This document shows positions 833-54,012 of a DNA stretch of 64,000 bases, in pieces. The notes below the pieces were generated by a model. That model saw nothing but the letters and a program-made list of their open reading frames with translations. It searched no databases and was not told where the DNA came from. This DNA comes from a virus. Every line of letters starts with the position of its first letter. Positions within the stretch are counted from its first letter, which is position 1. Made by a program: the position numbers and the translations under genes. The stretch spans positions 1 through 64,000 of IMG/VR virus record IMGVR_UViG_3300046737_000227; one strand, 5' to 3'.

Positions 833-861
833 AAAGTGCCACACGTCCATCAAACCGTCAA
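833..861 (-). promoter_or_regulatory. promoter TTGACG-N17-CACTTT (repeat copy B)
   Basis: Same 29-nt element as 661-689. Overlaps the stop codon of the CDS at 858-1451. Confidence 0.5.
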
Positions 862-880
862 GCGGGTTTCGCAACGTATT
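833..880. repeat. dispersed repeat, copy B
   Basis: 48-bp identity with 661-708. Confidence 0.8.
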
Positions 881-1451
881 GTTTTACGGGATATAACACC
901 AGCTTAAACCGAAACTTAGATATCCGTGGAACCCGAACCAACTCGGCCCCTGCCGGGACATTTCCCCGCCGCCCATATTTTTTGCCCGTGCGTGCGTCGG
1001 CATAGTCGTGCCGCGGAGTTTTGCGCCCCTCATCGGTGCGGCCATCGGCCACCCAGTTCGCAGCGCGATAGATGGTCCCGGCGTGCCCGGCGCTGGGGTC
1101 CGCGTAGGATACAAGGAACTGCACTTCGGGATGGTTGCGGCGAATGTATTTCACGCTGCCGGAAATGGCCCATGTTTCGGCATTGGCGGGCACCTCGTCA
1201 AGCAGGTAAAGTCTGGCTAGCTCCCAAGTTTTTCCCCCATACCGCACATCCGACTGTTTGGGCGGTGCCGAGTATAGCACCATCCCAACCAGCTTACCAA
1301 AAGAAAAAATGCCGAGGGATAGCAGGACAATGGCGGGGCGTTTTTTGAGATAATGGACAGCGACGAATGGAGCGACCGCGCGCAGAGATACCGGCCGCAA
1401 TTCCGAATTTTTACGCCATTCGGAGTCAAAGACAGGTCCAAAGGGTTTCAT
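858..1451 (-). CDS. GNAT-fold protein, possibly Mom-like DNA-modification family (197 aa)
   Basis: The C-terminal part of ORF 858..1970, from MKPFGPVF, is protein-like. The block LVSYADPSAGHAGTIYRAANWVADGRT resembles what I recall of the Mom-type acyltransferase family. The N-terminal 173 aa of the long ORF is Arg/Pro-rich frame noise. Confidence 0.5.
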   Translation of the reverse strand: MKPFGPVFDSEWRKNSELRPVSLRAVAPFVAVHYLKKRPAIVLLSLGIFSFGKLVGMVLYSAPPKQSDVRYGGKTWELARLYLLDEVPANAETWAISGSVKYIRRNHPEVQFLVSYADPSAGHAGTIYRAANWVADGRTDEGRKTPRHDYADARTGKKYGRRGNVPAGAELVRVPRISKFRFKLVLYPVKQYVAKPA

Positions 1452-16251: not shown

Positions 16252-16430
16252 TGAAGACACTGAACCTCGACGAATTAATCGAGCGACTCGTGGCGATGCA
16301 AAAGCTCGGCGCCGGAAAACAGGAGGTCATCGTCTGGCACGACGGGTCGGTGGGCTGTGACGGCATTCGTCACGTGGAATCGTCGTTGGTGGGCGTTGAA
16401 GACGCGGCGCCATCTATCATCCTCACATGA
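16248..16430 (+). CDS. hypothetical protein (60 aa)
   Basis: ORF with ATGA overlap. Confidence 0.55.
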   Translation: MMKTLNLDELIERLVAMQKLGAGKQEVIVWHDGSVGCDGIRHVESSLVGVEDAAPSIILT

Positions 16431-17146
16431 GAGTTTTCGCTTACCTCCGGGTGTCCACGCAAGAGCAGGTGGACAAGAACGGGCTCGAGCGCCAGTGGGA
16501 CGCGATACAGTCGCTGCTCGCGTCGAAGCTGGACTGGACCATCGCACGGAAGTTTTCCGAGCACCAGTCCGGCGGCGTGACCTTCGAGAACCGCGGCATG
16601 CTGCTGGAGATGCTCGAGCTCGCGCAGACATACGACGTCGAGGCGATAGTCGTCGAGCGCGCGGACCGCATCGCGCGTGACCTGATGGCGCAGGAAATCT
16701 TTTTCGTGAAGTGCGGTGAACGGAACATCAAGGTGTTCGCCGCGGATACGGGCCAGGAGCTCACGTGCAAAGACGGCGACCCCACGCGCGTGCTGTTGCG
16801 GCAACTGCTCGGCGCGCTCGCGCAGTGGGAAAAAGCTGTCATTGTTAAGAAGCTGCAAGACGGTCGGCGGCGCACCGCGGCAAAGACTGGGATGCCCTGC
16901 GGCGGGCCGAAGGGTTACGGCACCCGCGGAGACGCCTCGGAGCAGGCGGACGAGCGGCGGGTCCTCAACTACATCCGGGAGCGCCGGCGGGGGGCGAACT
17001 GGACTTACAAGGAAATCGCGGACGAATTGAACCGGCGGCGGGAGCGGGCGCCGGGCGGCAAATTTTACTGGCATACCAGCACCGTTATGCACCTTGACAA
17101 AAAGCAAATTCCGGACACTTCTTCGGGGACATGGCGACCACATTAA
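16427..17146 (+). CDS. serine recombinase (resolvase/invertase-type catalytic domain, 239 aa)
   Basis: MRVFAYLRVSTQEQ places the catalytic Ser in the typical YxRVST context. VVERADRIARD follows, then a short C-terminal DNA-binding-like region. Confidence 0.85.
   Translation: MRVFAYLRVSTQEQVDKNGLERQWDAIQSLLASKLDWTIARKFSEHQSGGVTFENRGMLLEMLELAQTYDVEAIVVERADRIARDLMAQEIFFVKCGERNIKVFAADTGQELTCKDGDPTRVLLRQLLGALAQWEKAVIVKKLQDGRRRTAAKTGMPCGGPKGYGTRGDASEQADERRVLNYIRERRRGANWTYKEIADELNRRRERAPGGKFYWHTSTVMHLDKKQIPDTSSGTWRPH
17094..17121 (+). promoter_or_regulatory. class B promoter
   Basis: TTGACA AAAAGCAAATTCCGGA CACTTC TTCGGGGAC ATG(17131). Embedded in the recombinase 3' end. Confidence 0.5.
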
Positions 17147-19997: not shown

Positions 19998-20212
19998 AAG
20001 CCCTTAAGCGCGTGGTGGTTGCGGCGGCTACCGGTTCCACCGTGTTCATAGGCGAAAAACTAACGGCCCAGCGGATTAGTATTTGCCACGGCTGCCCGTC
20101 CTACCTGCCGATGACCAAGCAGTGCGGGGAGTGCTGGTGTTTCATTCATGCCAAGGCGCGCCTTGCGACCGAGAAATGCCCGCTGCAGAAATGGCCATTG
20201 ACAAACGTCTGA
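19970..20212 (+). CDS. small Cys-rich (zinc-binding-like) protein (80 aa)
   Basis: CHGCPSY...CGECWCFIH...EKCP. Confidence 0.55.
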   Translation: MRKEAKTALKALKRVVVAAATGSTVFIGEKLTAQRISICHGCPSYLPMTKQCGECWCFIHAKARLATEKCPLQKWPLTNV

Positions 20213-22752: not shown

Positions 22753-24012
22753 ATGCCCAATCCGAACCCCAACGCTCCTGGCGCAGACCAGAGCGCAAAC
22801 ATGCCATCCATTTCCGCGGAGACGTCCAGCGCGCTTGACGACTTGCTGAAACAACAGCAGGACGAAAACGAGCCGGCGCCACCGAAGGGACCCGAGCGCG
22901 GCGTGGACGGAAAATTTTTGCCTGCGTCTGGTGCGACGGGCGCTCCTGCCGCCCCGGCTACGACCGACGAGCCTGTGGTTTCTGGCGCGACCGGCGCGAC
23001 CGGTGCCCCGGCGGCGCCCGACCCCTTCGACGCCCCCGCTCCGGCGAAACTTTCGCCCAAAGCGTCCGAGGCGTTCGAGAACGTCAAGCGGCTCGCCAAG
23101 GAAAAGTTGGCCGCGCTGCAGACCGAGCGCGACGAGCTGGACAAAAAATACAAGGAGCTGTCGGAGAAATCCGGACGGCTCGACCCGAAGGTCGAGGAGG
23201 AGTTGAAAGAGCTCCGCGAGTTTCGGCGCAAGCTGGACGTGGAAGCCGACCCGGAGTTTCAGAAGTATGACGTGGAATCCACCGCGCAGGCCGATTCCAT
23301 CTACGGAAAACTTTTGGGCGTGGGCGTGGCCCAGGCGACCGTCGACAAAATCAAGGCGATGGGCGGCATCTTCAAGGTGCAGTGGGACCCCATCCTGGAA
23401 AAAATTCCGTCCCAGGCCCGGCGCTTCATCGAGGTCAAGCTCACGCAGCTCGAGGACCTGAAGGAAAAGAAAGCAGCTGCCATCACGGCGGCCAAGAAAA
23501 ACTCGGAAGAGTTTTTGCAGAAGCGGGCGCAGTCCACGGAAATCTCCAAGAAAGAATTCCGCGACCACGCCTCGAAGACTTTGGACACCATGATTCCCAA
23601 GCTGGATTGGTTCGTGGAAAAGAAACCCACGGACAAATCCACCGATGCCGAGAAGGCGTCCATCGTGGAGCACAACAAGCTGCTCACCGATACCAAGGAA
23701 GCGGTGAAGGAAGCGATGGAAGACGACAGCCCGGAGATGCGGGCGTTCCTCGCGGTCGGGCTGGCGCAGCTGATGAAGCTGCGGGTGGACTACTCGTCCT
23801 CGCTCGCCTCGCACAAGTCCGAAGTGGAAAAGCTGACCGCCGAGCTGGCCGCCGCCAAGGGGCTGCTCGAGAAGGTGAAGAGGGGCTCGACCAATCGGCT
23901 GCGCGACACGACCGCCACGACCAACGCGCCGAACGCCGTGGGCCAGACCATCAACGAGAAACCCGCGGATGCGCTCGACCGCCTGCGCGCTGAAGTGGAA
24001 GCCAAGCAATGA
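22753..24012 (+). CDS. scaffolding protein candidate (419 aa)
   Basis: Highly charged, with predicted coiled-coil stretches (KEKLAALQTERDELDKKYKELSEKS...). Lies between the portal and capsid genes. Confidence 0.5.
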   Translation: MPNPNPNAPGADQSANMPSISAETSSALDDLLKQQQDENEPAPPKGPERGVDGKFLPASGATGAPAAPATTDEPVVSGATGATGAPAAPDPFDAPAPAKLSPKASEAFENVKRLAKEKLAALQTERDELDKKYKELSEKSGRLDPKVEEELKELREFRRKLDVEADPEFQKYDVESTAQADSIYGKLLGVGVAQATVDKIKAMGGIFKVQWDPILEKIPSQARRFIEVKLTQLEDLKEKKAAAITAAKKNSEEFLQKRAQSTEISKKEFRDHASKTLDTMIPKLDWFVEKKPTDKSTDAEKASIVEHNKLLTDTKEAVKEAMEDDSPEMRAFLAVGLAQLMKLRVDYSSSLASHKSEVEKLTAELAAAKGLLEKVKRGSTNRLRDTTATTNAPNAVGQTINEKPADALDRLRAEVEAKQ

Positions 24013-24797
24013 GCCGGCAGGTCTGCATTTGTTTACCGAGTTACAAAACGATGGAGCCACGGATGGCTTTTTCGGTGATGTCCCTCATCGACCGGACCAA
24101 GACGGCGGCGATGCTGGACTTCGGCGACGCATTCATCGTTCACTCGCGCAACAAACTCGCGGATGGCTTTCTTCGCACGAAGATGGAATGGATGTTAACA
24201 ATCGACGACGACATGGTCGTCCCCTTCGGCAATGCCCCACTTTTTAATTCGTTCACTAGTTTCAATTTGCCTGAGTCTTATGCCGGACTCAATGTTATTG
24301 ACCGGCTTTTATCACATGGCAAAACTTTGGTTGGCGCACTATACTTCGGTCGTTGGAAGCATGGCAAAGGCGTGTATGGCGAAGGTTCGGACCCGCAGGA
24401 ATTGAAATACGCGAAGTCCGGTCCGCACAACGTGTGCAAGCCGACGCGCTGGGTCGGGACCGGCTGCATGCTGATTCATCGCTCGGTCTTCGAGGACATC
24501 GAGAAGAAATTCCCGCACCTCTCGCGCGGGGCCGACGGTAAAGGCGGCCAGTGGTTCACCAGCTCCGAGCACGACCTTCGCATCGCCGCGGAAAAAGCGG
24601 TGACGCAGGACCCCGTCGTCGGGATGGCGACCATCAAGGCCGCGCTCGCGATGTCAAAACGACACTCGAGTTTGGGGATGGGCGAGGACGTTCAATTTTG
24701 TGTGCGCGCGACCCAGGCCGGGCATCAGCCGCACGTCGACATGGGATGTTGGGCCGGCCACATCGGAAGCTATTGTTATGGAGAACCCACCAAGTAA
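24009..24797 (+). CDS. GT-A-fold glycosyltransferase candidate (262 aa)
   Basis: N-terminal ICLPSYKT and a TIDDDMV DxD-type motif. ATGA overlap with the scaffold gene. Confidence 0.55.
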   Translation: MSRQVCICLPSYKTMEPRMAFSVMSLIDRTKTAAMLDFGDAFIVHSRNKLADGFLRTKMEWMLTIDDDMVVPFGNAPLFNSFTSFNLPESYAGLNVIDRLLSHGKTLVGALYFGRWKHGKGVYGEGSDPQELKYAKSGPHNVCKPTRWVGTGCMLIHRSVFEDIEKKFPHLSRGADGKGGQWFTSSEHDLRIAAEKAVTQDPVVGMATIKAALAMSKRHSSLGMGEDVQFCVRATQAGHQPHVDMGCWAGHIGSYCYGEPTK

Positions 24798-25527
24798 AAT
24801 TCTGCTGGCATTCCTTTTCTGGGAGCGCGACAAGGCGCAGATGTGCCAGCTCGCCCGCCTCATCGCGGACCTCGAGCCGGGCATGTGCGAATCTGCCGAC
24901 GTGCTTTTTTCCGCGCGCTTCGACTGCACGCACGACCTCGAAACGATTCAATATGTCTCTCGAAAATTCAAAGTCCACACGAACATTTGTCGCGGACGGC
25001 GCGGCGTGGGTTGGCCTGCCGGCTGCAACGATATCGTCTTCGGGACCCTCGACTACGTTCACGATTACGGTGCAGCCAAAAGAATCCCTCCTTACAAGGC
25101 TGTGGCGCTCCTGGAAGCGGACGGAGCTCCTCTTCGCAAAGGTTGGATAGAGGAACTCTCGCGCGCGTGGGACGAGGCGAACGCGAAGAAACCGGTGCGC
25201 GTCTTCGGTCCGCTGCTCGACACGGGGGTCAAGGACGCCGGCTTCAAGCACATCAACGGGAACTGCTTGGTGTCCGGGGACAAAGTTTTTCTGCATTGGT
25301 TCACTCGCAAGCTCGGCGGCTGCACCCCTAGGGCGGGATGGGACTGGTGTTTGGCCCCGCAGTTCAAGCGCCTGGGCTGGGCCGACTGCAAGCAAATGAA
25401 GTCGTGGTGGCGCTGCCCGGGCGTGTCCGAGGAGCAATACAACCAGCTGCTCGATGCCGGCGTGTGCTATCTCCACGGCTGCAAAAATGAGGACGTGTGG
25501 AACCTCGTCCGGAAAAAATACCTGTGA
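24778..25527 (+). CDS. hypothetical protein of the sugar-modification cassette (249 aa)
   Basis: Internal ATG (MENPPSKILLAF...) of ORF 24700..25527. Contains GWPAGCNDIVFG. Confidence 0.5.
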   Translation: MENPPSKILLAFLFWERDKAQMCQLARLIADLEPGMCESADVLFSARFDCTHDLETIQYVSRKFKVHTNICRGRRGVGWPAGCNDIVFGTLDYVHDYGAAKRIPPYKAVALLEADGAPLRKGWIEELSRAWDEANAKKPVRVFGPLLDTGVKDAGFKHINGNCLVSGDKVFLHWFTRKLGGCTPRAGWDWCLAPQFKRLGWADCKQMKSWWRCPGVSEEQYNQLLDAGVCYLHGCKNEDVWNLVRKKYL

Positions 25528-26075
25528 GCGATATCCCCGAGACAATGCTTCCGACCGAGTGCTTGTGTTATCCGCGCAGCGGGCACCACGCGCTCACGAA
25601 CGTGCTCGCCCATTACTTCGGCAAAAATTTTCACTACTGCGAGATGTATCGCGAGAATCCCAAGCTGATGGGTCCGGGCTCTCCGACTACGTGGCAGAAG
25701 AACCACGACTTCGAGCTGTTGACCCCGATTATCCCGGAGCGCCGGTATATCGTGCAGGTCCGCAATCCGCTGGAGTCAATCGAATCCTGGCAGATGCTGG
25801 ACCATCGGCTCATCGGTCACCCGAACGAGACGCAGGAGAAGCGATTGGATTTTTGGACCGCGTTCGTGAAAAAGTGGGTGTTTGGTCCCGTGCCGAATCG
25901 GCTGGTGGTCTGGTATGAGGACTTGGTCGAACGGCCCGTGCCGACGGTCACCAGCGTGATTCAATTTGTAACCCGAACCCAGAACGTGGATGCCGTGAAA
26001 CTGCAAGCCGCGCTCGAAAAATTCCCGCTCGCGCGGAGGACTCAAACATGCCCGACGCTATACACCAAGGCGTGA
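25524..26075 (+). CDS. sulfotransferase-like protein (183 aa, GTG start proposed)
   Basis: CYPRSGHH (5'-PSB-like), VRNPLESIES (3'-PB-like) and VVWYEDLVERP...VIQFV (typical C-terminal block). GTGA overlap with the upstream stop. Confidence 0.6.
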   Translation: MSDIPETMLPTECLCYPRSGHHALTNVLAHYFGKNFHYCEMYRENPKLMGPGSPTTWQKNHDFELLTPIIPERRYIVQVRNPLESIESWQMLDHRLIGHPNETQEKRLDFWTAFVKKWVFGPVPNRLVVWYEDLVERPVPTVTSVIQFVTRTQNVDAVKLQAALEKFPLARRTQTCPTLYTKA

Positions 26076-26791
26076 AGACAATCGTGTCCGTTCATGGTTA
26101 TAAGGGAGACGAGCACCAGATTCGCGCGCTCTTGCCGTGCTACGAGCACCACAAACTGCCCATTGTCATCCTTACGCCGACGGACAGCCGCATCCCGGAG
26201 ATGGGTCCGCACATCTGCCGTTTCGGTGGGCTGCGTGAATACGTGGGGGCGAAAAGTCTGGCGCGCCAGCTGGAGCATTGGAAAATCCTGTTGGAATACG
26301 ACGCGACGCACTACCTCTGCAACGATTCGGACAGCTTCTGCGTGTCCGCACAGCTCCCGCAATACATCTACGACGAGGACGTGCTGTGGAGTAACGAGGT
26401 GTCCGACATGTTCCACGTCCGCCCGGCCACCTACACGCTTCCGCGGCTCGCGTTCCAGCCCCCCTACTTTTTCTCGCGTGGAATCCTGGAACGGCTCATT
26501 GCCGCTGCACCGCTCGTCGTGTTTGAACCCCAGACCCCGTTCATCGACTGGTATTTCATGGCGGTCGCGCACGCCGGCGGGATTCCGCACAAAAACTTTC
26601 GAGACGGCATCAGCTGCGGAACCGCTGACTCTAGCATTCACCCAACTGCCAAGGACGGAGGGCTGGGGCTACGGGCCATGACCAACGCGGTTCAGAACCA
26701 CGGAGCAATTTTTCTCCATGCGGTCAAGAGCGCGCAGGTCCGCCGACAGATGGAATTTGTGCGCAAGCTTTACGTCCGGAACCACCCATGA
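26048..26791 (+). CDS. hypothetical protein, possible glycosyltransferase (247 aa)
   Basis: The acidic motif YLCNDSDSF could be DxD-like. Cassette context. Confidence 0.45.
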   Translation: MPDAIHQGVKTIVSVHGYKGDEHQIRALLPCYEHHKLPIVILTPTDSRIPEMGPHICRFGGLREYVGAKSLARQLEHWKILLEYDATHYLCNDSDSFCVSAQLPQYIYDEDVLWSNEVSDMFHVRPATYTLPRLAFQPPYFFSRGILERLIAAAPLVVFEPQTPFIDWYFMAVAHAGGIPHKNFRDGISCGTADSSIHPTAKDGGLGLRAMTNAVQNHGAIFLHAVKSAQVRRQMEFVRKLYVRNHP

Positions 26792-27726
26792 ACAAGAACT
26801 CCAGAATTTACGTCGCGGGTCACCGCGGGCTCGTCGGGGATGCCGTCCTGCGGCACCTGCGCGCGAACGGCTACACCAACATTCTCACCAAGACGCACAC
26901 CGAGCTGGACCTGACGGACCCGGTCGTGGTGCGCTGGTTCTTTTCCTCGCACGAGCCGGAATACGTTTTTCTGTGTGCCGCGCACGTCGGGGGCATCCTG
27001 GCGAACGACCAGAACCGCGTGGAATTCCTGACGAAGAACCTCGCCATCCAGAACAACGTCATCTTGAGCGCCGCCGCGTATGGCGTGAAAAAGCTGTTGT
27101 TCCTGGGGTCGTCCTGCATCTACCCGAAAAACGCCGAGCAGCCCATCAAGCCGAACGCGCTGCTCACCGGTGCTTTTGAACCGACGACCGAGGCATACGG
27201 CATCGCCAAGGTGGCCGGCATCCGCCTGTGCCAATACCTGCGTGACGAGCAAGGCTGTAACTTCATCGCCGCACAGCCGTGCAACCTCTACGGGCCGAAC
27301 GACCGGTTTGACTCCGTTCGGTCGCACGTCGTGCCGGGGCTCATTACTCGCCTGCACCGCGCAAAATCCCTGGGGATGTCCGAGCTGGACGTCTGGGGCG
27401 ACGGGTCCGCGCAGCGGGAACTGCTCTATGCCGACGACCTCGCCAGCGCGTTGCTGCTGCTCATGCACGCATACGACGGGCGCGAGGTGGTGAACGCCGG
27501 CAGCAGCGACGAATGGACCATCAAGGAAATCGCCGACGAAGTCCGCCGGGTGGTCGGTTACCGAGGCGTGCTTTTCTTCGATGACTCGAAACCGACCGGT
27601 GTTTCCCGCAAGGTTTTGGACAATTCTTTCATCAGGAGCCTGGGCTGGACCCCGCAAGTATCTTTCCCCGAAGGACTTGAGAAGACCTACACGGGATTCC
27701 TGCAGCGGACCACATTGGGCTCTTGA
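26788..27726 (+). CDS. fcl: GDP-L-fucose synthase (GDP-4-keto-6-deoxy-D-mannose 3,5-epimerase/4-reductase)
   Basis: Collinear with E. coli Fcl as I recall it: IYVAGHRGLVG, AAHVGGILAN, KLLFLGSSCIYPK, EPTTEAYGIAKVAGI, NLYGPND, and a DDSKPTGVSRKVLD tail. Confidence 0.92.
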   Translation: MNKNSRIYVAGHRGLVGDAVLRHLRANGYTNILTKTHTELDLTDPVVVRWFFSSHEPEYVFLCAAHVGGILANDQNRVEFLTKNLAIQNNVILSAAAYGVKKLLFLGSSCIYPKNAEQPIKPNALLTGAFEPTTEAYGIAKVAGIRLCQYLRDEQGCNFIAAQPCNLYGPNDRFDSVRSHVVPGLITRLHRAKSLGMSELDVWGDGSAQRELLYADDLASALLLLMHAYDGREVVNAGSSDEWTIKEIADEVRRVVGYRGVLFFDDSKPTGVSRKVLDNSFIRSLGWTPQVSFPEGLEKTYTGFLQRTTLGS

Positions 27727-27856: not shown

Positions 27857-27872
27857 GAGACATTCGTGTCTC
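27857..27872 (+). promoter_or_regulatory. 5'-UTR hairpin GAGACA-UUCG-UGUCUC
   Basis: Perfect 6-bp stem with a UUCG tetraloop, 18 nt upstream of the capsid ATG. Confidence 0.5.
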
Positions 27873-27890: not shown

Positions 27891-29171
27891 ATGAGCGCTC
27901 AGTGTAACGATGCCGACCAGATTTCGGAAATCGCACAAAAAGACGTGTCCCGTCTCGTAGGGACCGTGGCCAAAACGTTGGCCGCGAATTCAGTGTTCAT
28001 CAATGTCATCGGTGGTGGAGTGTTCCCCTCCGGCGTCAGCGATGAAATCCGTTTCCCCGTCCAGATGCAGGCCGCCCCCGGCGACTCGCTCGCTCTCCCC
28101 ACTTTTCAGTGCGACACTGAAGTCTGCGGAACGAACGGCATCCAGGATTTGACCGACGCCATCGACTTCACGGCCCGGTTGGAAACCAAACGTGGTCGCG
28201 GTCCTCGCGTGTGTGTCAAAAAAGGCTACAGCGCGTTCAAAAGCTCGTATCTCTCCGCGGAGGATTCCCTCCGGAAGCTCATCACCCAGTATGTCAACTC
28301 CGACATCCGTGCTCAGTTATACCTGCGCTCAGCCTCGAAATTTAATGCCGTCGCCGGCTACGATTTTGACTCGCTGTTCACTGGTGGAACCGAAACGGAC
28401 CTCGGTGTTCAGTTCGCTCCGCTGTTGCCCACCGGCCCGCTGAGCTTCAAGGCGCTTCATTACGTCGTGCGTTTCGTCAAGGAGGCGTTGTTCGCTTCCA
28501 TGTTCGACAGCGAAGGCAAAGGGATGCCCCACGCTCGCTTCATCGGCAGCTCCGACATCATCGAGAGTTTCCGCAATGAAATCGGCGTCAAGGAAATCCT
28601 CATCGGCCTCACCACGGGCGGATACAAACTGGGCGAGCAATCGGTCAGCGCGTATCAGTTCGAGGAAGCCCCCGCGTATCGCGGTCTGGCTTTCGGTGTG
28701 GACCAACGTCCGCTTCGCGCCACTGGTTTCGACGGCGACGGCAACCTGATTCTGGTTGACCCCGTCGTGAACGTCGCGAACGTCTCGAAGAACACGGCTT
28801 TCGCCAAAATCAACCCCGCGTGGTTGGCTGCGGATTACGAAGTCGGGTTCCTCATGTTCGACAATACCTTCAACCGGCTGGTGCCCGAGAAGTATGTCGG
28901 CGAAGGCACGTTCAAGCACGCTCCGCAGCTTCACATGGGTGAGCTCGAGTGGCATTACATCGTGGACAACGACTGTAACCAGTTCGGCGACTTCGGTTGG
29001 CACAAGTATCAGATTACTCGCGCCTACCAGCCGATTCGGCCGCAGCACGTCATCCCCATCCTCTACCGTCGTTGCACGGCTGACCTCGGTCTGCCCGACT
29101 GCGCGGTTCCGGACAGCTCCAGTTTTTCTGGAAGCGACTCGTTTGCCTCGCTCGGTGTCTGCGACACCTAA
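27891..29171 (+). CDS. major capsid protein candidate (426 aa)
   Basis: It has its own promoter with a long structured leader and an AGGAAAGG purine tract before the ATG. A strong hairpin follows the stop. Size and position are typical. Confidence 0.6.
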   Translation: MSAQCNDADQISEIAQKDVSRLVGTVAKTLAANSVFINVIGGGVFPSGVSDEIRFPVQMQAAPGDSLALPTFQCDTEVCGTNGIQDLTDAIDFTARLETKRGRGPRVCVKKGYSAFKSSYLSAEDSLRKLITQYVNSDIRAQLYLRSASKFNAVAGYDFDSLFTGGTETDLGVQFAPLLPTGPLSFKALHYVVRFVKEALFASMFDSEGKGMPHARFIGSSDIIESFRNEIGVKEILIGLTTGGYKLGEQSVSAYQFEEAPAYRGLAFGVDQRPLRATGFDGDGNLILVDPVVNVANVSKNTAFAKINPAWLAADYEVGFLMFDNTFNRLVPEKYVGEGTFKHAPQLHMGELEWHYIVDNDCNQFGDFGWHKYQITRAYQPIRPQHVIPILYRRCTADLGLPDCAVPDSSSFSGSDSFASLGVCDT

Positions 29172-29448: not shown

Positions 29449-29464
29449 TTCAAATTCGGGGGCG

Positions 29465-29704
29465 GTGCGACCTGCGTGCCGCCCCCGAACTCTTTTTACC
29501 GTGCTCGACAATCTCAAAGTTTACGGGGCGTCTGCTGTCGGATTCGGTTCTCCCATCGCAAACGTTTTCATTGACACCTCGACGTCCGTGCTGGGCGTGC
29601 TGGTGTTGGTCGGTCAAGTCGCCGTCGCCGTCGTGACCACGCTCTATATTTTTCGCAAGGCCCAAGCTTTGCGCAGCGACAAAAAGAACAAGAAAGATTC
29701 CTGA
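29465..29704 (+). CDS. small single-pass membrane protein with basic tail (79 aa or shorter)
   Basis: VLGVLVLVGQVAVAVVTTLYIFRKAQALRSDKKNKKDS. Confidence 0.45.
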   Translation: MRPACRPRTLFTVLDNLKVYGASAVGFGSPIANVFIDTSTSVLGVLVLVGQVAVAVVTTLYIFRKAQALRSDKKNKKDS

Positions 29705-41271: not shown

Positions 41272-41733
41272 ATGCAAGAGCATGCCACAGCGTTAGCCCA
41301 GGTCCTTCCGAGCGGGATTCCCGCTTTGCGGCCCCTGTTCCAGCGTTACTTTGAGGACGTCCGGTATCCCGGGCGGCTGGACATGCGCGCAGTGGAAGAA
41401 ATCTGGGGGCCGCTCATCGCCCGGGGCAACGGCAGCATTTTGGCCGAGTGGCCGACGGCGGGCGCTCGCGGCATCGTGGGGACCACCTACATGCGCGACA
41501 CGTTCAACGGCGAGCTGACCGCCATGATGGTTTTTCTCTACGTCATGCCGGAGTGTCGGGGCCAGGGCATCGGGCGCACCTTGCTGGACCAAGCTGAGAC
41601 AGACGCCCGGCTGCGTGGCTGCACGAGCATTGTCCACGGGCACACGTTCACCATCAACGAGGATGGCGGACGAGCAATTTTTGAGAAGCGCGGTTACGAA
41701 GTAATCGAGCTCGGTTTTCGGAAACGACTTTAA
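41272..41733 (+). CDS. GNAT-family N-acetyltransferase (153 aa)
   Basis: MPECRGQGIGRTLLDQAE is the acetyl-CoA-binding motif A (R/Q-x-x-G-x-G/A). Confidence 0.75.
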   Translation: MQEHATALAQVLPSGIPALRPLFQRYFEDVRYPGRLDMRAVEEIWGPLIARGNGSILAEWPTAGARGIVGTTYMRDTFNGELTAMMVFLYVMPECRGQGIGRTLLDQAETDARLRGCTSIVHGHTFTINEDGGRAIFEKRGYEVIELGFRKRL

Positions 41734-41737
41734 TTTT

Positions 41738-43000
41738 ATGGGTTACGCAATTGGTTCCGCGGCGTCAATCGCCGAACGATTCACCGATGAGAAGGCGATG
41801 CGCGAGGCATACGCTTTCATGCGCGATGGGCTGCGCGAGCAACGCAAGGCCCTGAAGGAGGATTACGATTTGGAACGTATCTCCGGGCTCGTCCAGCAAT
41901 ACGACAAGGGATACCTCGACCGCCGAGTGTCGCTGATGAAGGAATACGAGCCCGACTTGTATGCCGCCGGCCAAGTCGCCCGCAAGGACATCCTTGCGCA
42001 GGCGCAGACGCCCGTTTCCGCGCTGGAATCCACGCGGACGGCCAAGCAACTTTTCAAGGAAAACATCGACCAGAACCCCGAGCTCGCCAAGCTCAAGGAA
42101 AACGTCATCGCCCGGGCGAACGACGTCCTCGCGTTGGGCGGGAACTTGCCGGCTGAGTATCAGGCCGAGCTCGTCCGCGCCGGCGTCGGCGGGGCCGCGC
42201 AGGCGGGTATTAAGCCCCAGGCGGGCACGGTCGGCGGCGTCGTCTCCAAGGTCCTCGGCAGCGAGGGCGAACGTTTGCGCCAAGCGCGCACGATGGAAGC
42301 GTCGAAACTCGCGGACACCGCGCAGCAGATGACCGAATCGCGCGCCAAGATTCTCGGCTCGATTTTTCCGACGATTCAATCCGCGGAACGCGAAGGGCTG
42401 GCTCGCTCCGCGTCCATTTTTGGGCTGACTGAAGCCGCCACGCCAGCTAGCAGCACGGGACTCACGGGCCGCGAGGTGTTAAACCTCGACCTGGGTGGCC
42501 GAACCGCACAGCGCGACGTCAATTCGCAGCTGGCAAATTTGAAGGCATGGAAGTCGCTGGAGTTTGCGCGCATCCGTGATACCGCGTTGAACCAAGTCGC
42601 CGGCAACTTTGGCGGCACGGCGAGCGGCGCATACGGCGGCGCGGGCGGCTCCGGCGGCGGTGGCGGGGGTTCGTCGATGGGTTCCATGGGTTCCATGATG
42701 GGCATGGCTGGCATGATGTCCGACCGCAACGTCAAGGAAAACATCAAGGAGCTCGACGAGGCGAAAATTTTGGAGAAGGTATCCAAGCTGCCCGTGTCCA
42801 ACTGGGAATATAAGAAAGACGTTGAGAACGTGCCGCAAGGTCAGCATACTGGCCCGATGGCACAAGACTGGGACGTGCTTTTTGGGAGCGGCACCGGTGA
42901 CGCGAAAACGATTCCAATCGTGGACGCCATCGGCGTGGCCCTGGCCAGCGTGAAAGCGCTGGTCAAGGAAATCAAACAGATGAAGACGGCCAAAGCTTAA
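41738..43000 (+). CDS. virion protein with C-terminal S74-type intramolecular chaperone domain (420 aa)
   Basis: A Gly/Met-rich linker is followed by SDRNVKENIKEL...VSNWEYKKD...GPMAQDW, the auto-cleaving chaperone signature of endosialidase/tail-spike proteins. Confidence 0.65.
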   Translation: MGYAIGSAASIAERFTDEKAMREAYAFMRDGLREQRKALKEDYDLERISGLVQQYDKGYLDRRVSLMKEYEPDLYAAGQVARKDILAQAQTPVSALESTRTAKQLFKENIDQNPELAKLKENVIARANDVLALGGNLPAEYQAELVRAGVGGAAQAGIKPQAGTVGGVVSKVLGSEGERLRQARTMEASKLADTAQQMTESRAKILGSIFPTIQSAEREGLARSASIFGLTEAATPASSTGLTGREVLNLDLGGRTAQRDVNSQLANLKAWKSLEFARIRDTALNQVAGNFGGTASGAYGGAGGSGGGGGGSSMGSMGSMMGMAGMMSDRNVKENIKELDEAKILEKVSKLPVSNWEYKKDVENVPQGQHTGPMAQDWDVLFGSGTGDAKTIPIVDAIGVALASVKALVKEIKQMKTAKA

Positions 43001-51835: not shown

Positions 51836-52468
51836 ATGCCCGTGATGCCCGAAGACATTCAGCCCGTTGCCGCCGCCCCCGCTGCGGCTGACGAGGTCAC
51901 CCCCGCCGAGGAACCCGAAGCCAAGGCCCCCGTTATGCCGCCCGAGCTGGCGAAGATTCCCGCCCTCGCCGCCCTGGCGAACGGGTCCCCGCCGGCTACC
52001 TACGGGCCGCTCAAGTCGGAAGACCCTCAGCTCAAGGTCATTGGGAAGAAAGAGAACGCCGAGGCCCTGAAAAAGATGGGTTTCGCCGCGTTTGAATCCG
52101 AATCCCAGCCGGGGAACTTCGTGCTTTTTAACGGGCTACTTGTTAAGCCCCAGGAAGTTATGGACGCCGACAAGGCGGGCCAGCTCGATTCCATCGCCGT
52201 GCCCTTTCAGCAGCTGGCGGCCTCATTTGAATCCGCCCGGTTGGATGGCGGCAGTTCCGAAGTTCCCGCAGAGGGGGCGCCCGCTGCGCCAGCGCCCGCT
52301 GGTGAAGCCGCAGCCGCTCCGATGCCCTCCGCTCCCCCCGCTCCTGCCGGTGCCCAGAAACGCCTCCTGGCGGCTCGGGTGACGAATTTGCAGCCCGGCA
52401 GTCCGACATCGGGTCCGGCGCCCGGTCGCGGTCGCGTGCTCAACGCGATTTCAAAACCAGTCGTATGA
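51836..52468 (+). CDS. hypothetical Ala/Pro-rich protein (210 aa), last rightward gene
   Basis: ORF. Its 3' end overlaps the convergent gene by 18 nt. Confidence 0.55.
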   Translation: MPVMPEDIQPVAAAPAAADEVTPAEEPEAKAPVMPPELAKIPALAALANGSPPATYGPLKSEDPQLKVIGKKENAEALKKMGFAAFESESQPGNFVLFNGLLVKPQEVMDADKAGQLDSIAVPFQQLAASFESARLDGGSSEVPAEGAPAAPAPAGEAAAAPMPSAPPAPAGAQKRLLAARVTNLQPGSPTSGPAPGRGRVLNAISKPVV

Positions 52469-53545
52469 CCAAGCGTGGGGGGCCTCGGGGGTGTTCCACC
52501 CCTTCCCCCAGAGCAGGCTCAGCCGCTCGAAATAACGCTGATAGTCGTGCTTGAGGGTATACATCGAATATTTTTGGATTGCCCGCGCGCGAATGGCTTT
52601 CCGGTCCAGGGTGTTCACCTGCCGGCAGGCGTCCGCAAACTCCCCCAGGTAGTGACATCGGAACCCGGACATGCCGTGCACCACCGTCTCCGTAAACCCA
52701 GCCCAGTCCGTTGAAATGACCGGCGTGCCGCAAAGCTGCGCCTCCACGGCCACGCAGCCGAACGGCTCGGGGTAGAGTGACGGGCAAAACACCGCCTGCG
52801 CCCGGGCCATCATCTCGTTGCGGGTCTTCCAGTCCGGGGCACCACAATACTCGTGACCCCCGGTGATGTTCCGCAGGCTGCCGCCGTGACCGATGAGCTT
52901 CAATTTCACGCCGGCAGCGGTCGCGGCGTCACACGCTACGCGGACCCCCTTTTCGTGAGTCAGTCGACCGACGTAAAGAAAATAGTCGTCCGGTGTGGCG
53001 AGGTGAAATTGGTCGGGGTCAAAAAAGACGGGGATGACCGTATCGAAGAAACGCGCGTTAGAGATGCGTTGCGCCCCATAACAGAAGTGCATCCACGCAT
53101 AGCTCTCGAACACCCGGAACGGCGCCCAGTTGCCCTCATACCCGATGGAATACTCCACGCCCAGGAGGTCCTTGTGCGCGTCAAAAACTGGCTTCTGCGA
53201 GTGGCCCCCGATGGAGAGCAGGAAGTCCCGCGATTGCTTGCGCTTGGCGATTTCGGCAATCATCCAGGGGTTCGACTGTTGGTAGAGCGGGGTTTTTCCG
53301 TCCACGGGCGCGTGCTGGTATTCCGTCTGCCCCAGGTAGCGCTTGCGGTCGCCCTCGGGCATCACGTTGATGAACTCGGTGCACGGGGCGGTGGAGCCCT
53401 CGGCCCCGTAAAGGTAGACCGTGTGGCCCAGGGAGCGCATCATGCGGCAGAACCGGTGGCCGGCGGCGGCGAACCCGTCGAGTGAAAAGTCTTCGCTGAC
53501 GGGGCAATTCGGCAAGCCGAGCAGATGTATCCGAAGCGGGGTCAT
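52451..53545 (-). CDS. GT4/GT1-type (GT-B fold) glycosyltransferase (364 aa)
   Basis: YVGRLTHEKGV...LIGHG...PSLYPEPFGCVAVEAQLCGTPVISTDWAGFTETV matches the E-x7-E / EPFG...EA..G.PV signature. Confidence 0.85.
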   Translation of the reverse strand: MTPLRIHLLGLPNCPVSEDFSLDGFAAAGHRFCRMMRSLGHTVYLYGAEGSTAPCTEFINVMPEGDRKRYLGQTEYQHAPVDGKTPLYQQSNPWMIAEIAKRKQSRDFLLSIGGHSQKPVFDAHKDLLGVEYSIGYEGNWAPFRVFESYAWMHFCYGAQRISNARFFDTVIPVFFDPDQFHLATPDDYFLYVGRLTHEKGVRVACDAATAAGVKLKLIGHGGSLRNITGGHEYCGAPDWKTRNEMMARAQAVFCPSLYPEPFGCVAVEAQLCGTPVISTDWAGFTETVVHGMSGFRCHYLGEFADACRQVNTLDRKAIRARAIQKYSMYTLKHDYQRYFERLSLLWGKGWNTPEAPHAWSYDWF

Positions 53546-54012
53546 GGAAAATTGGGTTTCGCGAACTCGCCAAAATATGCGCGGGCACCTGCATCATACG
53601 ACCGCGCGGCGTCTTCCTCCCTATGAAATTTTCCCAGGTATATCCGTCTTCCGGCGACCTGTAGATTCGCGCGCCACTTCCGAGCGTCAGGGCACCAATA
53701 GACGCCCTTGAACTTCGAGGTCGCCGCCGCGCGTTTGACACGGTTGCGCATGTTTTGGGCATGGGTGGCCGGACGGAGATTGGCCCGTTGATTGTTTAAC
53801 CCATCTCCGTCTCGGTGGTCAACGCCTTTGGTGTTCAACAGTTCACAATGCAACCAAACGTGCCCCCAGCCCTCCTTTCGCAGTGCGTAGAATGTGTTCG
53901 ACCGGGGATTCCACAAGGCGTGCCATTTGCGGCGCCCAAATTCTTCCATGTCGGCGAAGTCGATAACCGCGACCTGTCCCTGCGTTAACGGAAGAAAAAC
54001 AATGGCGCTCAC
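53542..54012 (-). CDS. HNH (HNH_3-type) endonuclease fused to an AP2 DNA-binding domain (156 aa, GTG start)
   Basis: VDHRDGDGLNNQRANLRPATHAQN plus SKFKGVYWCPDARKWRANLQVAGRRIYLGKFHREEDAARSYDAGARAYFGEFAKPNF. GTGA overlap with the upstream stop. Confidence 0.8.
   Translation of the reverse strand: MSAIVFLPLTQGQVAVIDFADMEEFGRRKWHALWNPRSNTFYALRKEGWGHVWLHCELLNTKGVDHRDGDGLNNQRANLRPATHAQNMRNRVKRAAATSKFKGVYWCPDARKWRANLQVAGRRIYLGKFHREEDAARSYDAGARAYFGEFAKPNFP

Follow-up and report, generated by a model that had tools for sequence, protein, structure and literature searches.

A candidate virion-glycosylation locus in soil phages: two conserved predicted glycosyltransferase genes and a hypervariable sugar and sulfate slot within the head module

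Glycosylation of phage virions has been shown recently, in a few mycobacteriophages. Their capsid and tail-tube proteins carry glycans at the C-termini (PMC12619734, citing Freeman 2023; PMC11256854), and the enzymes are the products of accessory genes that lie terminally in the genome. In chloroviruses, GMD, GMER and the glycosyltransferases for the capsid glycans are virus-encoded, and Pbi chloroviruses that lack gmd and gmer still carry fucose (PMC5408694). Phage glycosyltransferases of the GT-A fold are also known to hypermodify DNA, and an R...DDD...ED triad has been described for these enzymes (Pyle et al., bioRxiv 10.1101/2023.12.21.572611). Here, an island of five genes located between the putative scaffolding protein gene and the putative major capsid protein gene of a soil phage was analysed in positions 1 to 64,000 of IMG/VR virus record IMGVR_UViG_3300046737_000227 (64,000 nucleotides; referred to below as the window). 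The genes are designated GT1, orf2, mini-ST (for a mini sulfotransferase), orf4 and fcl. GT1 and orf2 were found to be constant members of the head module, and the remaining genes belong to a slot that behaves like a surface-glycan diversity locus.

Relatives of the phage were defined as the 127 IMG/VR contigs (up to ~75 kb) encoding homologues of the 426-aa protein at the right border of the island, the putative major capsid protein. As two ORF-calling heuristics proved unreliable in this GC-rich DNA, the content of the slot was determined using family hidden Markov models (HMMs) against stop-to-stop frames. The loci searched were those with both border genes, scaffold and 426-aa, and 52 distinct intervals of 1.8 to 6.0 kb were obtained. 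In 52/52 loci, GT1 and orf2 are placed between these borders, while the identity of the portal protein drops to 43%. SDR sugar-nucleotide genes were found in 37/52 loci, gmd lies beside fcl in 16/52, and orf4 is present in 33/52, sometimes twice. Further occupants are the transferase-like families k5, k9, k14 and k16, a Polysacc_synt_2 dehydratase and homing-endonuclease-like ORFs. Several slot ORFs stay without identification; the others, apart from the endonucleases, are carbohydrate-related.

Phages with a 426-aa protein at least 94% identical to that of the window display three states of the slot, namely mini-ST, orf4 and fcl as in the window; orf4 and fcl; and a 316-aa canonical Sulfotransfer_3 protein (E=2e-28) together with fcl. 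As two unrelated sulfotransferases occupy the same slot in sister genomes, sulfation itself may be a selected trait of the locus, and this is the strongest hint of it. In one sub-lineage, a mini-ST-SDR-orf4 block is found directly upstream of the large terminase gene (terL), co-oriented with the late genes. The arrangement was also traced in two outgroup phages, in which the capsid-gene homologues are 32-35% identical (hhalign E=1e-43 and 4e-65). Here the gene order is portal, scaffold, GT1, sugar genes, orf2 and capsid gene, with orf2 near the capsid gene and with methyltransferases, GT32, GT2 and UDP-glucose dehydrogenase encoded between GT1 and orf2. A GT1 homologue directly follows the scaffold candidate in every relative and in both outgroups. 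Over 50 distinct genomes and two deep outgroups are thus predicted to have two glycosyltransferases as core genes of the head module. The hot spot of diversity next to them exchanges, among phages that are nearly identical, pathways for sugar nucleotides, transferases and two sulfotransferases that are unrelated to each other.

The slot was also seen to hold small ORFs of another kind. Downstream of fcl and before the 426-aa gene, where the window has a gap of 164 nt, two strains that are 93-97% identical to the window across the island region include a 166-aa Cys-rich ORF (L084:11582-12082 and L085:12983-13483). The islands of other relatives have small Zn-finger ORFs of a similar kind and a GIY-YIG gene (L039:5529-6137), and all of these look like homing endonucleases that use the slot.

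In the window, the five co-oriented plus-strand ORFs fill positions 24009-27726 and each overlaps the next (Table 1). The preliminary description had reported the same ORFs, and their coordinates were borne out, with every motif quoted in it present. The junctions consist of ATGA between the scaffold gene and GT1, 20 nt between GT1 and orf2, GTGA between orf2 and mini-ST, 28 nt between mini-ST and orf4, and ATGA between orf4 and fcl. The codon-position GC content of the five genes (GC3 0.71-0.82, GC2 0.40-0.44) follows the pattern of the structural genes (terminase, portal and capsid candidates), and overlapping alternative frames do not have this pattern. The five ORFs are therefore real genes that are compositionally native to the genome. 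No hydrophobic stretch of membrane-helix length was found in any of the five proteins, and the island does not encode a flippase, polymerase, Gtr-type protein or any membrane protein.

Assignment of the island to the late structural unit is supported, as its genes are co-oriented and translationally overlapping and no strong terminator occurs before the end of the 426-aa gene, and they would be co-transcribed late in infection. The hairpin that closes the unit, located after the 426-aa gene and a 65-codon ORF, is the only strong plus-strand terminator from terL to that point. Membership of the late unit had been claimed previously on the basis of promoters at 20198 and 27723, and this part of the argument did not hold, as both are bare TTGACA hexamers without an acceptable -10. 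A sigma-70 scan found no site at either position, and its total of 5 sites against 4.3 expected is at the level of chance. Searching for a motif around TTGACA yielded 22 matches where 10 would be expected, and these form no clear pattern. A sigma-70-family factor is encoded by the phage itself (58627-59418, minus strand; PF04542 and PF04545), and hence the late promoters of the phage may not resemble the sigma-70/host consensus, which limits promoter calls in the island.

Table 1. Features of the island and its surroundings, with coordinates in the window.
Feature	Coordinates	Strand	Basis or remark
Putative scaffolding protein, 419 aa, left island border	22753..24012	+	Weak coiled-coil-type Pfam matches; named by position
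GT1, core glycosyltransferase-like protein, 262 aa, probably GT-A/GT2-like	24009..24797	+	Weak consistent matches
orf2, predicted core GT-A fold glycosyltransferase, 249 aa	24778..25527	+	Predicted structure, fold search
mini-ST, predicted mini sulfotransferase, 183 aa from GTG (192 aa from 25497)	25524..26075	+	Profile, motif and fold evidence
orf4, accessory GT-A-like transferase candidate, 247 aa	26048..26791	+	hhalign to orf2, GT2 fusions
fcl, GDP-L-fucose synthase, 312 aa	26788..27726	+	NCBIfam and PDB matches, motifs
Hairpin GAGACAttcgTGTCTC	27857..27872	+	In the 164-nt gap, ~20 nt upstream of the 426-aa start
Putative major capsid protein, 426 aa, right island border	27891..29171	+	Position, conservation; strong RBS (ribosome-binding site) upstream
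Ser-rich C-terminal motif SSSFSGSD of the capsid candidate, candidate O-glycosylation site	29115..29138	+	Conserved motif
Terminator-like hairpin, strong, closes the unit	29455..29489	+	15-bp stem, 11 G-C pairs, then T run
GT4-family (GT-B) glycosyltransferase	52451..53545	-	PF00534, PF13692; could share the glycan pathway of the island

GT1 gave no Pfam, NCBIfam or PDB sequence match, either as a single sequence or as a family profile. However, all 25 of the 25 family members match phrog_1574, which is of unknown function, and the annotated PHROG matches of the family are all to glycosyltransferases (phrog_34859, best 8.9e-6, and phrogs 12406, 2456, 842 and 1579). Using tblastn, GT1 was found to be related to a protein annotated in GenBank as 'putative glycosyltransferase' (E=2e-4, coverage of 97%) and to gp05 of pelagiphage HTVC027P (E=9e-5), and these two homologues have sub-threshold matches to Pfam Anp1/Glycos_transf_2. 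Residues R47, D66 and D68 (TIDDDM), E226-D227 (GEDVxF), H239 and H251 are invariant among 25 sequences. No relationship of GT1 to orf2 or orf4 was detected by hhalign, nor of any of these three to a small alignment of Pfam-positive GT2 domains. GT1 is probably glycosyltransferase-like, as judged by matches that are weak and consistent, and the GT-A-like call made previously for the first gene stands to that extent; it is the least secure of the five assignments. A GT1 homologue with the annotation 'putative glycosyltransferase' was also observed in an unrelated uncultured phage (GenBank accession number MW202496.1; L093, 1-3011), two genes after the scaffold and major capsid protein genes, and a capsid-adjacent glycosyltransferase of the GT1 family is therefore not unique to this lineage.

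For orf2, no match was found in Pfam, NCBIfam, PDB-sequence or PHROG searches or by tblastn against GenBank phages, and its product had been listed as a 249-aa unknown. The AlphaFold2 model (pLDDT 97, pTM 0.93) replaces this label. In a Foldseek search of the PDB, the top 50 matches were all GT-A enzymes, including B3GalT5 (1e-7), XXYLT1, the fucosyltransferase WrtF, XylT1 and glycogenin, with 235 matches at E<1e-3. Conserved features are D115, invariant in a DXD-like E113-A-D115 motif in which E113 is at least 90% conserved, H158-x-N160-G161 and H233-G-x-K236. As judged by its predicted fold, orf2 is a GT-A glycosyltransferase.

Like orf2, orf4 has no direct Pfam, NCBIfam, PHROG or PDB match and none by tblastn against GenBank phages. 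Comparison of orf4 with the orf2 family by hhalign was weak with shallow alignments and informative only with deeper ones, which gave a probability of 75% and E=2.5e-5 over 129 columns, with D93-S-D95 of orf4 aligned to E113-A-D115 of orf2. In four multidomain proteins (P0221, P0238, P0242 and P0254), the orf4 domain is fused to Pfam Glycos_transf_2 domains. The orf4 product, previously the 247-aa unknown, is on these grounds a candidate glycosyltransferase-type protein distantly related to orf2. The presence of orf4 is associated with that of a sugar-nucleotide SDR gene (32/5/1/14; Fisher p=9e-8, ignoring phylogeny).

The product of mini-ST was compared with sulfotransferases at the level of profile, motifs and fold, and the earlier sulfotransferase call passed this check. 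In Pfam, the 183-aa protein matches Sulfotransfer_3 with E=9e-4 and 20 bits, below the gathering threshold of 27, and PF13469/PF00685 are precomputed in three distant homologues (3/31 homologue clusters). All 36 matches of the family profile in the PDB are sulfotransferases (best 2.8e-4). The top 50 Foldseek matches in the PDB to the AlphaFold2 model (pLDDT 88.3) are all sulfotransferases that use 3'-phosphoadenosine 5'-phosphosulfate (PAPS), with Teg12 the best at 1.4e-5 and query-normalised TM-scores of ~0.5-0.65. The 5'-phosphosulfate-binding (5'-PSB) loop YPRSGHH at residues 16-22, in which P17, R18, G20 and H21 are invariant among 29 homologues, aligns with YPKSGTT of SULT1C3. The 3'-phosphate motif R80-NPLESIE-S88 (R-x7-S, with both R and S invariant) aligns with ARNPKDCLVS of the same enzyme. 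K59-N60-H61, also invariant among the 29 homologues, resembles the K-x-H of cytosolic SULTs and is presumably the candidate catalytic pair. PHROGs and tblastn against GenBank phages gave nothing useful for this protein. Fold and motif evidence supports a PAPS-sulfotransferase fold with PAPS-binding and candidate catalytic motifs, and the activity is predicted from these. Other phages and giant viruses already have annotated proteins of this fold. A literature search found no sulfotransferase described in a phage head or capsid module or tied to virion glycans.

The identification of fcl as a GDP-L-fucose synthase gene, made in the preliminary description, was supported by a full-length match to NCBIfam GDPFucSynFcl (E=5e-112; 374 bits, under the equivalog cut-off of 500 bits) and by matches to the GDP-L-fucose synthases of PDB entries 7ll6 (E=7e-90, residues 5-309) and 1bsv from E. 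coli (E=7e-79). The blocks GSSCIYP (107-113), YGIAK (137-141) and SHVVP (179-183) are conserved against 7ll6. In E. coli numbering, we take the catalytic residues of this enzyme to be the triad S107, Y136 and K140, with C109 and H179 serving in epimerisation.

A gmd gene was not found in the 64-kb window by tblastn with the gmd proteins of two relatives. A contig of 75,274 bp, with 100% identity to the window, supplied the rest of the genome (~10 kb). The flanks outside the window overlap each other by 2,543 bp, and the genome was thus closed as a circle of ~75 kb. The additional ~10 kb does not include gmd either. The absence of gmd reported earlier therefore extends from the window to the whole closed genome. 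Hence, the phage must draw on GDP-4-keto-6-deoxymannose of the host, or fcl acts on something else. The host dependence proposed earlier is consistent with this absence, and some relatives have gmd beside fcl within the slot, as given above.

Among the head-module genes, only terL has a name supported by homology, as it matches annotated terminases (E=5e-8 and 4e-3). For the portal, scaffold and major capsid candidates, searches of Pfam, PHROG, NCBIfam, PDB sequences and GenBank phages returned no match, and tblastn of the capsid candidate and portal against GenBank phages gave nothing useful. No match was obtained for the capsid candidate when the family profile was compared with the PDB, the outgroup sequences with GenBank phages, or, by hhalign, an annotated capsid protein. 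These three names are drawn from gene order, size, coiled-coil character, the highest conservation in the locus and the strong terminator after the 426-aa gene. The 426-aa protein is the most conserved protein of the locus, with 68-96% identity across the 127 contigs. Its C-terminal peptide is ...SSSFSGSDSFASLGVCDT, and its end is a conserved Cys-framed tail, in which SS[FY][ST]G is kept in all family members listed.

On a modest balance of probability, the island serves to glycosylate a virion protein, probably the capsid protein, late in infection and in the cytoplasm. GT1 and orf2, soluble and encoded by fixed head-module genes, would place a core glycan onto a virion protein during head assembly. 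The likeliest acceptor would be the neighbouring 426-aa putative capsid protein, possibly its Ser-rich C-terminal tail, and the hypervariable accessory genes would elaborate the core. In the window, fcl would provide GDP-L-fucose from host-made GDP-4-keto-6-deoxymannose, orf4, as a GT-A-like transferase, would probably add the 6-deoxyhexose, and the PAPS-dependent mini sulfotransferase would transfer sulfate from host PAPS to the glycan. In this scheme we infer which protein is the acceptor, in which order the steps follow, which sugar donors serve GT1 and orf2, and that sulfate is placed on the glycan. The target had previously been given as virion proteins or the host envelope. The fixed place of GT1 and orf2 across deep divergence, the late-operon context and the lack of any export or membrane component make a virion protein probably the target, and the comparative data, which strengthen the virion part of the earlier proposal, favour a protein that is universal. 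They speak against the collagen-like fibres that had been suggested as acceptors. The collagen-like genes downstream are real (weak or faint Pfam Collagen matches and G-x-y runs), but 15/56 relatives have no collagen-like run within 10 kb downstream while the glycosyltransferase pair is universal, and the fibres are therefore disfavoured as a common target.

Several observations weigh against glycosylation of a virion protein as the role of the island. All of the evidence is computational, and the 426-aa protein is called capsid protein by position and conservation only. The capsid proteins of the two outgroups are without the Ser-rich tail though GT1 and orf2 are kept, and thus the tail cannot be the universal acceptor. 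The sulfotransferase falls below the Pfam cut-off, has GHH in place of the canonical GTT and is ~100 residues shorter than characterised enzymes. In one sister phage, fcl occurs in the absence of both orf4 and the alternative k5 transferase, so that orf4 is no more than a candidate for the fucosyltransferase. The R47...D66-D67-D68...E226-D227 arrangement of GT1 is the motif triad described for DNA-glycosylating phage GT-A enzymes, and the GT1 homologue of pelagiphage HTVC027P is encoded between primase and helicase. Finally, the acceptors of soluble GT-A enzymes include undecaprenyl-linked ones.

The last point is of relevance to an unlikely, though the most serious, alternative, in which the island remodels an envelope glycan of the host, such as the O-antigen of lipopolysaccharide (LPS), capsule, exopolysaccharide (EPS) or S-layer, late in infection. 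The substrates of the phage transferases would be lipid-linked intermediates on the inner side of the membrane, with export of the product left to the host machinery, and this could stop progeny or competing phages from adsorbing to infected cells and debris. The gene content of the slots (GT-A enzymes, gmd/fcl, SDRs, methyltransferases and sulfotransferases) is indeed like that of O-antigen and capsule loci and equally hypervariable, the use of undecaprenyl-linked acceptors is common among soluble GT-A enzymes, WrtF and other polysaccharide glycosyltransferases are among the fold matches of orf2, and the phage relies on the GDP-mannose pathway of the host. However, the island has no flippase, polymerase, Gtr-type or other membrane protein, the genes lie outside any lysogeny or early module, and late expression leaves little time for a change of the cell surface. 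Moreover, a host-specific conversion should track serotype, whereas the place of GT1 and orf2 is fixed across deep divergence.

It is less probable still that mini-ST, orf4 and fcl are cargo, accumulated at an insertion-tolerant and highly expressed spot without a functional tie to the virion, GT1 or orf2. The differences in slot content between near-identical strains, the homing endonucleases that the slot also collects (HNH-like, GIY-YIG and Zn-finger ORFs) and the position of the accessory block before terL in one sub-lineage would all be accounted for in this way. Yet the identified cargo other than endonucleases is carbohydrate-related and always stands beside two universal glycosyltransferases, orf4 goes along with the SDR genes, one sulfotransferase can stand in the place of another unrelated to it, and the codon composition of the genes fits that of the phage.

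Hypermodification of the phage DNA with sugars by the transferases, of the kind carried out by other phage GT-A and GT-B enzymes and using donors supplied by the sugar-nucleotide genes, is the least probable explanation and a very improbable one, as the GT1 triad, the HTVC027P homologue and the Mom-like and MazZ-like DNA-modification genes of the genome, which favour it, are set against a genome-wide lack of Pfam matches to a thymidylate-synthase-type hydroxymethylase, TET/JBP dioxygenase or C5-methyltransferase, and hence of an obvious hydroxymethyl acceptor, against the overlap with the scaffold gene in the head module when hypermodification genes usually cluster with replication genes, and against a sulfotransferase and a chain of three transferases that are without precedent on DNA. 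The Mom-like protein (PF25680) is encoded at positions 858-1451 (minus strand), and ~8 kb beyond the 5' end of the window (L097:12041-20231) include genes for an SNF2 helicase, a protein with DUF4406 and a dATP/dGTP diphosphohydrolase N-domain, and DUF2800; together these genes suggest DNA modification of a purine type rather than with sugars.

If the glycan predicted from glycosylation of a virion protein is present on the particle, capsid glycosylation would be common in soil viromes, and diversifying selection would act on phage surfaces as it does on bacterial ones. The 183-aa minimal sulfotransferase and two new GT-A families would then be usable for glyco-engineering. A bolder version, possible but rather doubtful, is that this soil phage lineage coats its capsid with a strain-variable O-glycan, which is fucosylated and sulfated in the phage studied here, and that the genes are obligatory in head morphogenesis. 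If true, this would be the first sulfated glycan on any phage particle and a phage counterpart of O-antigen diversity, a virion 'serotype' locus, driven possibly by receptor-like host defences, predators or adhesion to soil polymers.

The lineage forms a large group of ~70-75-kb soil and rhizosphere phages. An attempt to assign a host from genome collections was abandoned, as only two contigs from metagenome-assembled genomes (MAGs) were recovered, these belong to unrelated phyla (Peribacteraceae and Nitrospirota), and they are probably mis-binned phage DNA.

Two further features lie at the borders of the island. Residues ~60-100 of the scaffold candidate form a Pro/Ala/Thr/Gly-rich, mucin-like stretch, a conceivable O-glycosylation substrate encoded directly before GT1. 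Perfect hairpins of at least 6 bp are present within 80 nt upstream of the 426-aa gene in 38/61 distinct relatives, compared with 9.5 +/- 2.9 in shuffles. The arms vary by lineage (GAGAC/GTCTC, GGGAC/GTCCC or GAGTC/GACTC), and the leader shows no conservation of primary sequence.

Other genes of possible relevance are found at a distance from the island. The GT4 gene is the last of a leftward operon that converges on the end of the structural operon, and is preceded by an HNH/AP2-type gene (~53542-54012, minus strand). A GNAT acetyltransferase gene (41272-41733, plus strand) in the tail-fibre region lies directly before the gene for a Peptidase_S74 fibre/spike protein (41738-43000, plus strand), and is possibly another virion- or glycan-modifying enzyme of the structural module. 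Peptidase_S74 is a self-cleaving chaperone domain. A serine recombinase (PF00239 Resolvase; 16427-17146, plus strand), which could be an integrase or invertase, is encoded ~640 nt upstream of terL with one small ORF between them.

The island shares individual properties with several known systems. Among PAPS-dependent sulfotransferases (Teg12/StaL, SULTs, heparan sulfate 3-OST and TPST), the fold, the 5'-phosphosulfate loop and R-x7-S are the same and the K-x-H pair is similar to K59-N60-H61, but the island enzyme has 183 rather than 250-300 residues, is missing the substrate lids and includes PRSGHH in place of PKSGTT/PRSGTT. The triad is shared by GT1 and the DNA-hypermodifying phage GT-A enzymes, but here a 5-hydroxymethyl-pyrimidine pathway is missing from the neighbourhood and the gene is part of the head module, not of the replication module. 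The gene repertoire of O-antigen and capsule loci of bacteria is of the same kind, and they too have a conserved frame with a hypervariable middle that is exchanged between close relatives. Unlike these loci, the island is without Wzx/Wzy/Wzz, an ABC exporter, an initiating phosphoglycosyl transferase or a membrane protein, and its frame is made of phage head genes.

In chlorovirus PBCV-1, fucose-containing glycans of the capsid protein Vp54 are built in the cytoplasm by virus-encoded GDP-L-fucose enzymes and transferases, as proposed here, gene content varies by lineage as in the present case, and the lack of gmd in Pbi viruses parallels that in this phage (PMC5408694). However, chloroviruses are giant eukaryotic viruses with a double-jelly-roll capsid protein and atypical N-linked glycans, and their glycan genes are scattered, whereas those described here are embedded between scaffold and capsid genes (PMC5408694). 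Sulfation is not mentioned in that review, in which 'sulfat' occurs only within 'sodium dodecyl sulfate'. In mycobacteriophages of the Che8/Rita type (PMC12619734, PMC11256854), phage-encoded glycosyltransferases act in the cytoplasm without a secretory pathway, and this system and that of the chloroviruses are the closest known to the scheme proposed here. The glycosyltransferase genes of cluster F1 mycobacteriophages are placed near the 3' end of the genome (PMC11256854), whereas those of this phage lie inside the head module. In the mycobacteriophage system no sugar-nucleotide synthesis gene or sulfotransferase is reported, and this island includes fcl and the predicted sulfotransferase. 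The locus therefore differs from known virion-glycosylation systems in its site in the head module, its universal two-enzyme core, its hypervariable accessory genes, its enzyme families that are new at the level of sequence, and its sulfotransferases.

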